From the NCBI RefSeq assembly GCF_003334385.1, contig NZ_QOWN01000089.1: DNA of 4,160 nt. One strand, given 5' to 3'. The notes below the pieces were generated by a model, which worked only from the letters and a program-made list of their open reading frames with translations, did no database searches and had not been told where the DNA came from. Below, in pieces: positions 587 to 3,790 of this stretch. Numbering within the stretch: the stretch's first letter is position 1; each line of letters starts with the position of its first letter. Position numbers and translations under genes: made by a program. The DNA is from Escherichia coli (GTDB taxonomy: Bacteria; Pseudomonadota; Gammaproteobacteria; Enterobacterales; Enterobacteriaceae).

Positions 587-662
587 GGCCCTTTAGCTCA
601 GTGGTGAGAGCGAGCGACTCATAATCGCCAGGTCGCTGGTTCAAATCCAGCAAGGGCCACCA
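587..662 (+). tRNA. ileZ: tRNA with anticodon CAT; closely resembles enterobacterial tRNA-Ile2 (lysidine-modified CAU, reads AUA) rather than tRNA-Met
   Basis: 76-nt cloverleaf: acceptor GGCCCTT/AAGGGCC, D-stem GCTC/GAGC, anticodon loop CTCATAA (anticodon CAT), T-arm GCTGG-TTCAAAT-CCAGC, discriminator A, encoded CCA. From memory it is near-identical in architecture to E. coli ileX-type tRNA. Confidence 0.85.
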
Positions 663-669
663 TCACATA

Positions 670-746
670 CCGCCATTAGCTCATCAGGAAAGAGCGCCAG
701 CCTTCGAAGCTGGTTGCGCGGGGTTCGAGTCCTCGATGGCGGTCCA
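670..746 (+). tRNA. argN: tRNA-Arg (anticodon TCG)
   Basis: 77-nt cloverleaf: acceptor CCGCCAT/ATGGCGG, D-stem GCTC/GAGC, anticodon stem CCAGC/GCTGG with loop CTTCGAA (anticodon TCG), T-arm CGGGG-TTCGAGT-CCTCG (one G-U), encoded CCA. Confidence 0.85.
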
Positions 747-759
747 TTATCGGTATTCT

Positions 760-836
760 GCGTTGTTAGCTCAGCCGGACAGAGCAATTGCCTTCTAAGT
801 AATCGGTCACTGGTTCGAATCCAGTACAACGCGCCA
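760..836 (+). tRNA. argO: tRNA-Arg (anticodon TCT, reads AGA/AGG)
   Basis: 77-nt cloverleaf: acceptor GCGTTGT/ACAACGC, D-stem GCTC/GAGC, anticodon stem ATTGC/GTAAT with loop CTTCTAA (anticodon TCT), T-arm ACTGG-TTCGAAT-CCAGT, encoded CCA. Confidence 0.85.
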
Positions 837-849
837 CACTTATTTTCCT

Positions 850-876
850 GGCTCGCTTCGGCGGGCCTTTTAATTT
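850..876 (+). terminator. Rho-independent terminator closing the tRNA cluster
   Basis: 7-bp GC-rich stem GGCTCGC/GCGGGCC (one U-G wobble, valid only on the + strand) with a TTCG (UUCG-type) tetraloop, followed by TTTTAATTT. Confidence 0.65.
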
Positions 877-999
877 GCTGAAAAAGAAAACATCAGATGG
901 TTAGTCGGGTATCAGTTATCTGGTGAAATTTTTAAATACCTCACAATTCAGGAAGGTGATTATTGTTTTTCTGGTGGGGAATTTGTTAAAAATCACTCC

Positions 1000-1113
1000 G
1001 CATGATGAATCCCCCTAAGCGGTGGGGCGACTGGCAAGGCTCCATTACGATGGTCACAATCCGCAGATTTAGTTTGCCAGGCTGAATCTACCGGGAGGCA
1101 CCCGGCATCATGC
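1000..1113 (+). ncRNA. Candidate structured RNA element, copy A (unknown function; possible sRNA or cis-acting leader/antitermination-type RNA)
   Basis: Closing helix P1 1000-1007/1106-1113 (GCATGATG/CATCATGC); hairpin Pa CCCC(1012-1015)/GGGG(1024-1027); helix Pb CTGGCAA(1031-1037)/TTGCCAG(1074-1080) with apical CCAT-TACG-ATGG hairpin (UACG tetraloop); 10-nt conserved linker GCTGAATCTA; hairpin Pc CCGGG-AGGCA-CCCGG (1091-1105). Helices are supported by compensatory changes relative to copy B. The coding frame is not conserved between copies. Confidence 0.45.
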
Positions 1114-1140
1114 ATAATGTGGAAAATTGGAAATGTATTC

Positions 1141-1174
1141 AGGCCTCTACGAATTTTAGTAGAGGCTTTTTTTT
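1141..1174 (+). terminator. Rho-independent terminator downstream of element A
   Basis: 8-bp stem GCCTCTAC(1143-1150)/GTAGAGGC(1159-1166), 8-nt loop, followed by eight consecutive T (1167-1174). Confidence 0.75.
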
Positions 1175-1178: not shown

Positions 1179-1205
1179 AAAAAAAGCCCGTCTATGGCAG
1201 CGGGC
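1179..1205 (-). terminator. Possible minus-strand intrinsic terminator (convergent partner of 1141..1174)
   Basis: On the minus strand: hairpin GCCCG/CGGGC (5 bp, 10-nt loop) followed by a 7-nt U-run (complement of A-run 1179-1185). Weaker than its unit-B counterpart. Confidence 0.35.
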
Positions 1206-1403
1206 AAGTATGCATGAGAATACATTTTTTATTATTTGCCTGAAAATAGTACCCTGAGGTTATTGTTGTTTTCAACAGGCTGATTTGTGTTCTGATCGGG
1301 GATGTGACAAGGAACATACGTTCTTATGTGAAAATGTTAAATTCTTCACATTTCAGTGAGTTGAGTGTTGATTTCGTTTTATCTTTTTTGTTAAAAAAGT
1401 ATT

Positions 1404-1529
1404 GCATGGTGAATCCCCCTGTGCGGTGGGGCGACTGGTGACAACAATTCATCATCCGTGATGACCCAGAAGAGATCGCGGGTTCAGTGGCACCGGGCTG
1501 AACTCACCGGGAGGCACCCGGCACCATGT
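1404..1529 (+). ncRNA. Candidate structured RNA element, copy B (paralog of 1000..1113)
   Basis: P1 1404-1411/1522-1529 (GCATGGTG/CACCATGT; the outer pair is G-U); Pa CCCC(1416-1419)/GGGG(1428-1431); Pb CTGGTG(1435-1440)/CACCGG(1491-1496) with internal U-G wobble, apical TCATCA-TCCG-TGATGA hairpin (1449-1464, UCCG tetraloop); linker GCTGAACTCA; Pc CCGGG-AGGCA-CCCGG (1507-1521). Confidence 0.45.
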
Positions 1530-1555
1530 TCATGGTGATACAGAAATGCGGCTTC

Positions 1556-1580
1556 AGCCCCTCTCCGGAGGGGCTTTCTT
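1556..1580 (+). terminator. Rho-independent terminator downstream of element B
   Basis: 7-bp stem GCCCCTC(1557-1563)/GAGGGGC(1568-1574) with TCCG tetraloop, then T-rich tract TTTCTT. Confidence 0.55.
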
Positions 1581-1586
1581 ATGGAC

Positions 1587-1614
1587 AAAAAAGCCCGCGC
1601 TGGGAGACGCGGGC
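1587..1614 (-). terminator. Minus-strand intrinsic terminator (convergent partner of 1556..1580)
   Basis: On the minus strand: 7-bp stem GCCCGCG/CGCGGGC (1593-1599/1608-1614), 8-nt loop, followed by a 6-nt U-run (complement of A-run 1587-1592). Confidence 0.55.
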
Positions 1615-1797
1615 GGCAAGGAATAAACAATAAAACGTGAAGTAATATTTCAGCTGGCGAATAATACCCCATAGTAATCACTCTGCGCAACTGCGCGGCC
1701 TTTTTCGTATTGCGGGCTGTAGTCTCCCTTCTGCCATTGTCCTGTAACTTCCGGACTTCAGCTCGCTCCTTATCTGACTCACAACATTATCCCGACC

Positions 1798-1803
1798 GGG
1801 AGG
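1798..1803 (+). promoter_or_regulatory. Shine-Dalgarno sequence of the esterase gene
   Basis: GGGAGG located 4 nt upstream of ATG 1808. Confidence 0.55.
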
Positions 1804-1807
1804 ATTC

Positions 1808-3790
1808 ATGACATTTAAACACTACGATGTGGTCAGGGCGGCGTCGCCGTCAGACCTTGCGGAGCGACTGACACAAAAACTGAAGGAGGGGTGGCAGCCA
1901 TTTGGCAGCCCTGTCGCCATCACGCCCTATACCCTGATGCAGGCCATTGCGGCGGAAGGTGATGTCACCACACCGGTGGTGGTGCAACCGTCGGGTGATG
2001 GTGGCGCTGTTATCAGCACCACCAGCGAACCGGAATATTACTTTGTCATTGCGCTGGCCGGGCAGTCCAACTCGATGTCTTTTGGCGAGGGGCTGCCGCT
2101 GCCGGATACGTATGATCGTCCTGACCCGCGTATTAAGCAACTGGCGCGTCGCAGCACGGTGACACCGGGCGGTGCGGCCTGTGCATATAACGACATTATT
2201 CCTGCAGACCATTGTCTGCATGATGTGCAGGACGTGAGTAATCTGAATCACCCGAAAGCAGACCTCAATAAAGGGCAGTATGGCTGTGTGGGGCATGCCC
2301 TGCATGTGGCCAAAAAACTGCTGCCGTTTATGCCTGCCCGTGCGGGGATCCTTCTTGTCCCGTGTGGACGTGGCGATTCGGGATTTACTGCGGGAGCAGA
2401 GGGCGCGTTTAATGAGGCGTCGGGTGCGACAGCGGGCTCTTCCCTGTGGGGGGTGGATAAACCGTTGTATCGTGACCTGGTCAGCAGAACGCGTGCAGCC
2501 CTGAAGAAAAATCCGAAAAACGTGCTGTTGTCGGTGATCTGGATGCAGGGGGAAAAAGATGTCAGTTCGGGGAGACATGCAGAGCACAATGCACTTTTTC
2601 TTGCCATGGTAAATCAGTTCCGTACGGAACTGGCAGATGTGGCAGAGCAGTGTACTGGCGGGACAACGGCCAGCGTCCCGTGGATTTGCGGTGATACCAC
2701 GTACTACTGGAAGGAAAGGTATGCAGCGCCGTATGAGGCGGTTTACGGTGGGTATAAAGGCAAAGCTGCGCAGAATATTCACTTTGTGCCGTTGATGACG
2801 GATGAGCATGGTGCGAATGTGCCGACAAACGAGCCGTCAGAAGATCCGGACATTATCACGGCGGGATACTATGGTGCCGCGTCACGCAGTAATGGTAACT
2901 GGACGACAGCCGATCGTAAAACGCACTTCAGCTCCTGGGCGCGAAGAGGCATTGTTTCAGATCGGCTGGCAGGAGAGATACTGGTGCGAGCCGGGCGTTT
3001 GCTGCCGTTCCTGAGCGGGCAGTCTGCACCGCTGGCGACCACGCCAGCCTCCACGGGGGATGCACAGTCTGGCTCTGCGGGTCAGACGCAACAGCAGGGT
3101 GCAGGTACTTCTGCAGGCGGTCATACTGAAGCCGTAACAAGAATGGTGGCCGGATATGATGCGAACAGTGGCAGTGGTGTATGGACAGAGCAGCAGTGGA
3201 ATGCGTCCGGTGGTAAAGGCACTGTGACGGATGACAGTGGCAGGAAGGCGCTGCGACTGGAAAAACAGCCGGGTAAACTGACCTCCTGGAAGATGTTCCG
3301 TACTGTTGCGGTGGAGGAGGCAAAAAATCTTCTCAGTAAGGGAGGTGAAATTGCCGTGCGGTTTAAGATCCCGGAGGGTGTCGAACTGGTTAACGGTCAG
3401 TTTGTCTTTGGTCTGTACTGGCCGGTGTCGCAGTGGGCGTCAGGCGCGACAGCAAACAGCATGCTGGCGTCCTTCTTCCTTCAGACGGATGCATCAAATC
3501 TGAATCTGATGTACCACAAGGGGGAGTCGAATGCGCAACTGGGCACATTTGGGGCATTTGACCATAACTGGCATACAGTTGTTTTCCGCTTTGCGGGAAA
3601 TAACAGCGAAAAAGTGGTGCCGGTGATTGATGATGCAGAGCAGTCTGCGTTTGACCTGGTGATGTGGACAAATGATGGCTTTACAGCAGATACGCTGACG
3701 CTGACAGATATCACGGGGGCAAAAGCGACGTATCCTGTACTGCTTGATACGGTCACAGTCAAAGTTAACGAAAGCCGGGCATCATCATAA
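1808..3790 (+). CDS. nanS-p: Prophage-type sialate 9-O-acetylesterase (NanS-p-like): N-terminal DUF1737-like region, SASA/SGNH esterase core, low-complexity linker, C-terminal beta-rich putative carbohydrate-binding domain
   Basis: 660-codon ORF with SD and stop TAA 3788-3790. GQSN block at codons 85-88 (nt 2060..2071) is the SGNH/SASA-type nucleophile motif. Size, N-terminal segment and position downstream of an ileZ-argN-argO-type tRNA trio match NanS-p esterases of EHEC lambdoid prophages (recalled from memory, not searched). Ser/Gly/Thr/Gln-rich linker around nt 3040-3130. The antisense ORFs inside it are shadow ORFs. Confidence 0.8.
   Translation: MTFKHYDVVRAASPSDLAERLTQKLKEGWQPFGSPVAITPYTLMQAIAAEGDVTTPVVVQPSGDGGAVISTTSEPEYYFVIALAGQSNSMSFGEGLPLPDTYDRPDPRIKQLARRSTVTPGGAACAYNDIIPADHCLHDVQDVSNLNHPKADLNKGQYGCVGHALHVAKKLLPFMPARAGILLVPCGRGDSGFTAGAEGAFNEASGATAGSSLWGVDKPLYRDLVSRTRAALKKNPKNVLLSVIWMQGEKDVSSGRHAEHNALFLAMVNQFRTELADVAEQCTGGTTASVPWICGDTTYYWKERYAAPYEAVYGGYKGKAAQNIHFVPLMTDEHGANVPTNEPSEDPDIITAGYYGAASRSNGNWTTADRKTHFSSWARRGIVSDRLAGEILVRAGRLLPFLSGQSAPLATTPASTGDAQSGSAGQTQQQGAGTSAGGHTEAVTRMVAGYDANSGSGVWTEQQWNASGGKGTVTDDSGRKALRLEKQPGKLTSWKMFRTVAVEEAKNLLSKGGEIAVRFKIPEGVELVNGQFVFGLYWPVSQWASGATANSMLASFFLQTDASNLNLMYHKGESNAQLGTFGAFDHNWHTVVFRFAGNNSEKVVPVIDDAEQSAFDLVMWTNDGFTADTLTLTDITGAKATYPVLLDTVTVKVNESRASS

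Follow-up and report, generated by a model that had tools for sequence, protein, structure and literature searches.

Juhala is said to have described, in 2000, a lambdoid 'moron' insertion site downstream of PR'. The DNA considered here is a stretch of 4,160 nucleotides from Escherichia coli (contig NZ_QOWN01000089.1; the window, below), in which two copies of the small RNA (sRNA) gene STnc100 stand between three tRNA genes and a nanS-p-type esterase gene. For lambdoid phages in general, the region downstream of the Q-antiterminated PR' was found by Tree et al. in 2014 to tolerate moron insertions, and convergent genes for Hfq-binding sRNAs were located at the moron site of eight Sakai prophages, Sp3, 4, 5, 9, 10, 11, 15 and 17 (PMC4104026). 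STnc100 partly overlaps the sRNA called EcOnc27 in O157:H7 Sakai and sRNA103 in EDL933 (PMC12711010, PMC7873438, PMC12370729), which binds Hfq, as confirmed by Northern blot and Hfq-CRAC (PMC7873438), and is encoded directly downstream of stx2B (PMC12370729). The PasD1 and PasD2 RNAs of enteropathogenic E. coli (EPEC) show Hfq-dependent stability and have RIL-seq partners (PMC8550237). PasD and STnc100 form one family, located upstream of a sialate esterase gene, and PasD is tightly linked to Q (bioRxiv 10.64898/2026.05.13.724894).

One close counterpart is the EcOnc27/AsxR locus of Sakai Sp5, where the order is Q, ileZ2-argN2-argO2, stx2A, stx2B, STnc100, AsxR on the opposite strand, and the nanS-p homologue ECs_1207. 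STnc100 (L127 6423-6628, 207.7 bits) lies 75 nt after stx2B, and AsxR (L127 6630-6682), convergent to it, scores 88.1 bits, above threshold. The window shares with Sp5 the ileZ-argN-argO-to-nanS-p slot, the plus-strand STnc100, the tail-to-tail arrangement with a short minus-strand sRNA (a candidate, in the window) and the nanS-p leader. Unlike Sp5, it has no stx2AB, carries the module twice as two diverged copies, has a methyltransferase gene, absent from Sp5, between the Q-position gene and the tRNAs, and has minus-strand partners that fall below the AsxR and AgvB thresholds. In the Shiga toxin (Stx) phage Stx2a_WGPS2 (NC_049941) the order is methyltransferase, ileZ, argN, argO, stx2A, stx2B, STnc100 and SASA esterase, with STnc100 (153.8 bits) starting 75 nt after stx2B. 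Its methyltransferase-ileZ-argN-argO-terminator block is 97% identical to that of the window and is likewise followed by STnc100 and a SASA esterase, but stx2AB occupies the place where the window has STnc100 copy 1 and its candidate convergent partner, m1. Phage PhiR12_1 (PV340549) resembles window positions 1329-4160 (95% identical), comprising STnc100 copy 2, its candidate partner m2, nanS-p and an ORF of the DUF1378 family, but there the block directly follows a Q21-type Q gene and PR'/tR', with neither methyltransferase nor tRNA trio and with one STnc100. The Hfq-dependent PasD1/PasD2 loci of EPEC E2348/69, likened to the window copies by their published description, are distant from each other in the genome and non-tandem (2026 preprint, Zhu, Shabalina and Storz), whereas the window copies are 404 nt apart.

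The gene order in the window is methyltransferase, ileZ-argN-argO, two tandem sRNA modules, nanS-p and the start of a lysis cassette. The interval between argO and the esterase is 100% identical to its counterpart in E. coli DETEC-S792, where the wider context reads RusA, DUF1133, methyltransferase, tRNAs, interval, SASA esterase, holin, lysozyme, terminase. This places the STnc100 units among the late genes of a lambdoid prophage, past Q/PR' and ahead of the lysis genes. The window is probably (at roughly 80%) the PR'-proximal moron region of an stx-negative lambdoid E. coli prophage, equipped with autonomous, trans-acting STnc100 sRNA genes.

Two STnc100 units between argO and nanS-p

Membership in STnc100 (RF02076) was defined as a covariance-model score, over the full model, of at least the curated gathering score of 47 bits. 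Unit 1 (970-1178, plus strand) scores 122.1 bits (E 2e-27) and unit 2 (1374-1586, plus strand) 147.2 bits (E 7e-34), each covering model positions 1-206 of 206, and both matches are far beyond chance. The elements conserved in the two units are the P1 closing helix, a CCCC/GGGG hairpin, P4, a CCGGG-AGGCA-CCCGG hairpin and a 3' intrinsic terminator. No other Rfam family was matched by the units, and to our knowledge they bear no convincing resemblance to a CRISPR-repeat mimic, a tRNA-like fold, or a ribozyme or riboswitch consensus.

Copy 1 (1000-1174, plus strand) is a divergent allele, composed of P1 (1000-1007/1106-1113), P2 (1011-1027), a pseudoknot (1031-1037/1074-1080), P4 (1065-1070/1084-1089), P5 (1091-1105) and the terminator (1141-1174); single-sequence folding recovers P1, P2, P4, P5 and the terminator. 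The corresponding parts of copy 2 (1404-1582, plus strand) are P1 (1404-1411/1522-1528), P2 (1415-1431), the pseudoknot (1435-1440/1491-1496), P4 (1480-1487/1498-1505), P5 (1507-1521) and the terminator (1556-1582). This copy is 87% identical to the one that follows stx2B in NC_049941 and is part of the block that is 95% identical to the PhiR12_1 copy.

The interval that contains the units (837-1807, 971 bp) holds no credible protein gene. Its longest plus-strand ORF is 45 aa, and the sole ORF of at least 60 aa is one of 68 aa on the minus strand, with a TTG start, that overlaps RNA unit 2. The identical DETEC-S792 interval is without a CDS in RefSeq. When the ten largest interval ORFs were compared with PHROG and NCBIfam, the only matches were fragments of phrog_24488, in different frames and antisense to the RNA core. 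This family (55 aa, unknown function) matches minus-strand ORFs at 996-1115, 1327-1455 and 1487-1690. Similarly, in E. coli D1 (L248 2676-2801) the PGAP annotation places a partial antisense 'hypothetical protein' over STnc100. Both the phrog_24488 family and the PGAP call are probably spurious ORFs on an RNA gene. The original prediction, made from the letters of the window alone, had placed the tRNA trio of Stx2-converting phages (anticodons CAT, TCG and TCT) and a NanS-p-like esterase on either side of roughly 970 bp with no plausible protein gene and with two structured-RNA units. Every one of these elements is confirmed in the window, as is the upstream methyltransferase gene: the tRNAs by ARAGORN and Rfam, the esterase by Pfam domains (DUF1737, SASA and DUF6645) on an ORF of 660 aa, and the interval and its RNA units by the measurements above.

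The 5' ends of the units can be approximated by comparison of homologues. Of 58 distinct upstream regions taken from phage contigs, 40 have a -10-like hexamer at a fixed distance before P1, mostly ending 10-14 nt before the invariant GAAUCC, and in 18 of these 40, both window copies included, the hexamer has a TG extension. In the window the predicted extended -10 elements, TGtTAAAAA on the plus strand (984-992 for copy 1, 1389-1397 for copy 2), sit ~7 nt before helix P1. Because such elements recur at a fixed distance, transcription is predicted to start at P1 or within a few nt of it, near 1000 and 1404, and the Rfam STnc100 model probably covers promoter DNA, not RNA, in its first ~30 positions. 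Farther upstream, a block conserved before both copies (922-946 and 1327-1350), and also present before the PhiR12_1 copy, holds an inverted repeat, GTGAA..N..TCACA, that is perfect before copy 2 (TGTGAA-N12-TTCACA). The repeat may be a protein-binding site.

Each STnc100 unit is followed, on the minus strand, by a convergent terminator and a short sRNA-like unit, so that the window fits the published convergent-pair layout twice. The first candidate, m1 (1180-1239, minus strand), was recognised from promoter and terminator scans and sub-threshold Rfam matches. A promoter-like TTGAAA-18-TACTAT (1275 to 1246) and a terminator, GCCCGCTGCCATAGACGGGC followed by seven T, predict an RNA of ~60 nt running from ~1239 to 1180. 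AsxR and AgvB are described as RNAs of 51-60 nt that are convergent to an STnc100-type sRNA and vary at the 5' end but conserve a 3' region of ~42 nt; the putative m1 is compatible with this description in position, strand, predicted length, promoter-like site and terminator, and its 3' region visibly aligns with Sakai AsxR. The second candidate, m2 (1587-1664, minus strand, 5' end uncertain), comes from the terminator scan and has a strong terminator (1614 to 1593, then a T-run) and a -10-like TACTAT (1676 to 1671). The m2 element is common to PhiR12_1 and differs in sequence from AsxR and AgvB.

The STnc100 core and its possible modes of action

The 5' side of the core is near-invariant in an alignment of distinct copies (GGUGAAUCCCCCU..GCGG.GGGGC), the middle region is variable, and the 3' side (CCGGGAGGCACCCGGCA) is invariant, an invariance imposed by the search pattern. 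Base pairing of the P4 loop with the stretch directly 3' of P2 forms a pseudoknot that is missing from the Rfam consensus structure line given by cmscan. The paired segments are CUGGCAA/UUGCCAG in copy 1 and CUGGUG/CACCGG in copy 2, and in other copies AUCAGCA/UGCUGAU, CCAGUC/GACUGG, AAUGACC/GGUCAUU and ACUGAUU/AAUCAGU. When partners were swapped among copies, cognate pairs averaged -9.6 kcal/mol and non-cognate pairs -6.5 kcal/mol (Wilcoxon p = 7e-11, which is not a true probability given that the sequences are related). Over 38 diverse copies aligned with MAFFT, 88.3% of cells pair versus 43-47% with slid partners, and none of 500 shuffles reached the observed covariation values. Changes on both sides occur in 18 of 30 pairs, comprising 6/6 in the pseudoknot, 7/8 in P1 and 5/5 in P4. 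Counted by column, the pseudoknot is paired in 70.6% of cells, a figure blurred by ±1-column register shifts in the MAFFT alignment, with which the swap test copes better. In locus L066 and one copy of L121 the pseudoknot partner lies upstream of P4, giving a nested fold. At 1522-1541, and again at 1106-1123, a repeat of the 5' strand of P1 (CAUGGUG) comes after the 3' strand (CACCAUG); the local hairpin could compete with P1, in E. coli-type tails only.

On the trans-acting reading, each STnc100 unit would be an autonomous gene made up of the extended -10, a pseudoknotted core of ~110-125 nt closed by P1, a variable single-stranded linker and a U-tailed terminator. In a lysogen the units would be transcribed independently of Q and end at their own terminators, and the RNAs would bind Hfq via terminator and U tail and base-pair in trans with host and prophage mRNAs, by analogy with homologues for which the literature demonstrates expression, Hfq binding and target sets. 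Both window copies would be active, and the short opposite-strand partners, m1 and m2, may be anti-sRNA sponges like AsxR and AgvB. Upon induction, Q-modified RNA polymerase from PR' would read through the tRNAs and all the terminators into nanS-p and the lysis genes.

Several observations weigh against this scheme. A consensus promoter scan called no plus-strand promoter for the STnc100 units, and the predicted hexamer, TAAAAA, lacks the usual final T. Single-sequence folding is weakly better than that of shuffles (z-scores -2.0 and -1.2), so that the case for structure rests on the comparative evidence. Among the partners, m1 matches the full-length AsxR and AgvB models (1179-1238, minus strand) at 20.7 and 15.9 bits, below the respective gathering scores of 63 (RF02703) and 56 bits (RF02702), and m2 matched no Rfam family; in view of these scores neither is filed as a member of AsxR or AgvB. 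A recognisable convergent partner accompanies 19 of 142 STnc100 copies in the sampled loci, as found by a search of low sensitivity. Finally, a plain base-pairing sRNA would not usually have a core that is near-invariant and pseudoknotted, and the trans-acting model may be incomplete.

In a tentative alternative, unlikely on balance, the near-invariant pseudoknotted core of ~110-125 nt is itself a functional RNA domain and not a scaffold for base pairing. The domain would consist of P1, the CCCC/GGGG hairpin with its UNNGCGGN loop, the GCG junction, P4 and the CCGGG-AGGCA-CCCGG hairpin, and, as part of the same joint reading, it could bind a protein, a ligand or RNA polymerase. Were this the case, the output module, made up of the variable 3' linker and the terminator, would be exchangeable, and the two to four adjacent copies in phages of Enterobacterales would represent dosage or diversification of the domain.

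The same features could belong to a cis-acting leader of the late operon, riboswitch-like or put-like, in which the core controls read-through of the terminator and tandem copies sharpen the response. Such a role would be suited by a structured core that runs into an intrinsic terminator, on the same strand as the late genes and ahead of nanS-p and the lysis genes, and also by the aptamer-like combination of near-invariant junctions and loops with a pseudoknot, the tandem arrays of two to four adjacent units, and the alternative pairing of the P1 3' strand with the downstream CAUGGUG in E. coli-type copies. However, linkers and terminators are not conserved family-wide, and no alternative core-terminator pairing is conserved across the family: such pairing is confined to E. 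coli-type tails, in which the 3' half of the terminator is similar to the 3' strand of P2. Furthermore, the units have an apparent promoter of their own at P1, and constitutive read-through would express lysis genes in lysogens; the most frequent layout in E. coli puts a minus-strand iraM gene between STnc100 and nanS-p; homologues are discrete Hfq-bound sRNAs (PMC7873438, PMC8550237); and antitermination is already supplied by Q and PR'/tR'. Control in cis is accordingly doubtful, with a low probability.

Far less probable still is that STnc100 is the PR'-tR' late leader, an equivalent of lambda 6S RNA or StxS, with the two units as relic late promoters. The idea draws on PhiR12_1, where Q lies directly upstream of STnc100 with no gene between, and on the tight linkage of PasD to Q (bioRxiv 10.64898/2026.05.13.724894). 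The PhiR12_1 Q is of the Q21 type, however (E 3e-92 to PDB 6JNX), and between it and STnc100 (4080-4285) stand a near-consensus promoter, TTGACA-18-CATAAT (3726-3755), and a terminator of its own (3796-3816), which make PR'/tR' a separate element. In addition, STnc100 is far from Q in the window and in Stx2 phages, downstream of the tRNAs in both and of stx2AB in the latter. With a separate Q21-type PR'/tR' upstream in PhiR12_1, the identification of STnc100 with the PR' leader was rejected.

Least credible is a decayed protein gene, stx or another moron, with RNA units that are chance structure: window positions 875-1028 are ~81% similar to DNA that starts in the last 30 nt of the DUF3927 gene of ABU 83972-type prophages, and antisense translations match phrog_24488 fragments, and strain D1 has a partial 'hypothetical protein' from PGAP antisense to STnc100, but a coding remnant was rejected on Rfam scores 75-100 bits above threshold, compensatory changes in P1, P4 and the pseudoknot, phrog_24488 fragments that lie in different frames, length variation in the middle region that is not ORF-like, and the lack of stx similarity in an interval where similarity to the Stx2a phage stops at 871.

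The cargo slot, its mosaic structure and its distribution

The STnc100 genes of the window reside in a mosaic. By blastn, positions 1-871 are 96.9% identical to the Stx2a phage NC_049941 and positions 1329-4160 are 95.3% identical to PhiR12_1, and the block between them (872-1328, copy 1 and m1) is a rare allele, essentially intact in only 6 of 5426 complete E. coli genomes. Similarity to the Stx2a phage is interrupted at 871 and picks up again at STnc100, such that 872 to ~1386, holding copy 1 and its minus-strand partner, is the exact position of stx2AB in that phage. No stxA or stxB was found between the tRNA trio and nanS-p, either as an ORF or as similarity in the window, so the interval is not a degraded stx remnant, and the flanking tRNA and nanS-p genes are homologous to those of Stx2 phages.

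The tRNA-to-nanS-p interval is soundly described as a variable cargo slot, as expected of a moron site: its contents are stx2AB, TerB and DUF3927, a TolA-like gene, minus-strand iraM, or sRNA genes alone. In ABU 83972 TerB and DUF3927 are followed by two STnc100 copies, and in S19-651 a TolA-like gene is followed by three. The slot of IMG/VR locus L121 has a TolA-like gene and an AraC-like regulator, with one STnc100 copy between them and four tandem copies after; the cargo at 6201-8418 of this locus reads TolA-like lipoprotein ORF (142 aa), STnc100, a methyltransferase-gene fragment, an AraC-like ORF (241 aa) and a 92-aa ORF. Some other loci likewise lack a clear protein gene in the interval: L080 has one copy, and L068 and L105 have two each, together with an ORF of 87 aa overlapping the first copy. 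The layout found most often in E. coli has minus-strand iraM, encoding an anti-adapter, between STnc100 and nanS-p, in the place of the short convergent sRNA. This gene lies at L248 2872-3207 in E. coli D1 and is also present in the Stx2 phages H16 and H20. The argO-STnc100 junction itself, at a coverage of at least 80%, is found in 1733 of 5426 complete E. coli genomes, a count that leaves room for a protein gene in the interval, as iraM follows STnc100 in the commonest type.

Since STnc100 follows stx2B by 75 nt in both Sp5 and NC_049941, it resides in the slot alongside stx2AB and does not replace the toxin. The proposal that this phage lineage can carry RNA-based rather than protein cargo therefore holds in part: the slot is variable and the interval encodes RNA, but RNA is not an alternative to protein. 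What can be said to replace protein in the window is the extra module alone, and sRNA cargo at this site was prior knowledge, since reports of sRNA genes in the moron slot between Q and the lysis genes, in prophages with stx and without it, go back to 2014. The upstream methyltransferase gene, taken in the original prediction to stand in place of an obvious Q antiterminator, is real, but it does not set the prophage apart from Stx phages: many Stx2a phages have it between Q and the tRNAs.

STnc100 extends well beyond E. coli. A search of IMG/VR with the core 18-mer ACCGGGAGGCACCCGGCA returned at least 120 loci, and the copies tested from ten such loci all belong to RF02076. In sampled loci nhmmer found one copy in 73, two in 21, three in two, four in three and five in two, the longest adjacent run being four, as in L121 at a spacing of ~260-270 nt. 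Tandem sets of three to four units spaced ~250-270 nt apart were seen at L121 8708-9687, L031 4089-5246 and L013 3093-3739; in the Enterobacterales genomes L134, L176 and L195 a repeated core 18-mer has the same spacing, as judged by the 18-mer alone. Genera with the 18-mer include Citrobacter, Enterobacter, Pantoea, Erwinia, Rahnella, Cedecea, Klebsiella and Salmonella, and it is also present in Escherichia albertii; triple occurrences at ~250-nt spacing were found in several species. Isolated matches in Actinomycetota, Bacillota and other metagenome-assembled genomes may be chance or contamination. In three phage contigs (L054 210-308, L047 65-156 and L031 4294-4392) a match to isrI (RF01392) lies directly upstream of an STnc100 copy.

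Flanking genes and the meaning of the locus

The window begins inside a DNA adenine methyltransferase gene, the 3' part of which occupies 1-546 on the plus strand. The ORF ending at 546 matches PRK11524/CcrM-type NCBIfam models below their curated cutoffs, and the region is 97% identical to the gene of NC_049941. In the DETEC-S792 prophage the Q position, ~1.7 kb upstream of the tRNAs, is held by a DUF1133 protein with a weak match to the Q21 C-terminus (E 5e-5). The tRNA genes, all on the plus strand and called by ARAGORN, are an ileZ homologue with anticodon CAT (587-662; Rfam tRNA 72.5 bits), an argN homologue for tRNA-Arg (TCG; 670-746, 55.7 bits) and an argO homologue for tRNA-Arg (TCT; 760-836, 66.7 bits). 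The counterpart of the CAT tRNA carries the ileZ annotation in L001 and L127 and is annotated tRNA-Ile (ileZ) in NC_049941.

A plus-strand hairpin resembling an intrinsic terminator (850-873; GGCTCGCTTCGGCGGGCC then TTTT in the terminator scan) lies 3' of the tRNA cluster, ~35 nt past argO, and is the last element common to the window and the Stx2a phage (blastn breakpoint 871). The same scan found a second terminator-like hairpin (1683-1703, plus strand) in the conserved nanS-p leader, kept in Sakai Sp5 and PhiR12_1. Both hairpins are conserved in Stx phages, and with them late transcription has at least four terminators to pass before nanS-p.

The nanS-p-type gene (1808-3790, plus strand) encodes 660 aa, with the Pfam domains DUF1737 (residues 3-50), SASA (157-276) and DUF6645 (509-617). 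An N-terminal DUF1737 followed by a SASA esterase domain is the mark of NanS-p, the 9-O-acetyl sialate esterase activity being putative. In a tblastn comparison the ORF shares 58% identity with the Stx2a phage 'SASA family carbohydrate esterase', the name that RefSeq also gives to its counterpart in DETEC-S792. A small ORF of the DUF1378 family (3930-4124, plus strand), taken from the ORF list, corresponds in position to a 'DUF1378 family protein' annotated in L002, and in related prophages this ORF stands ahead of the holin gene. On the minus strand of 3795-3915, directly past the nanS-p stop, lies a strong terminator (3816 to 3804) that can be extended to CCGCCAGC/GCTGGCGG, and a perfect TTGACA is located at 3912 to 3907, between nanS-p and the DUF1378 ORF. 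Together these signals suggest a candidate minus-strand sRNA of ~80 nt, in the position reported for PasA and PasC.

The finding as originally posed leaves the existing picture unchanged, the RNA family being already in Rfam. The window is a clean example of three things: the STnc100 module persists in the slot whatever protein cargo is present, it can occur as a tandem duplicate, and annotation pipelines still overlook it or place spurious antisense ORFs on top. Such novelty as there may be is incremental and concerns the STnc100 fold, its likely 5' end and the tandem arrays. The pseudoknot with its covariation, the likely start at P1 and the tandem arrays in Enterobacterales could steer work on why the core of this phage-borne RNA is so conserved.

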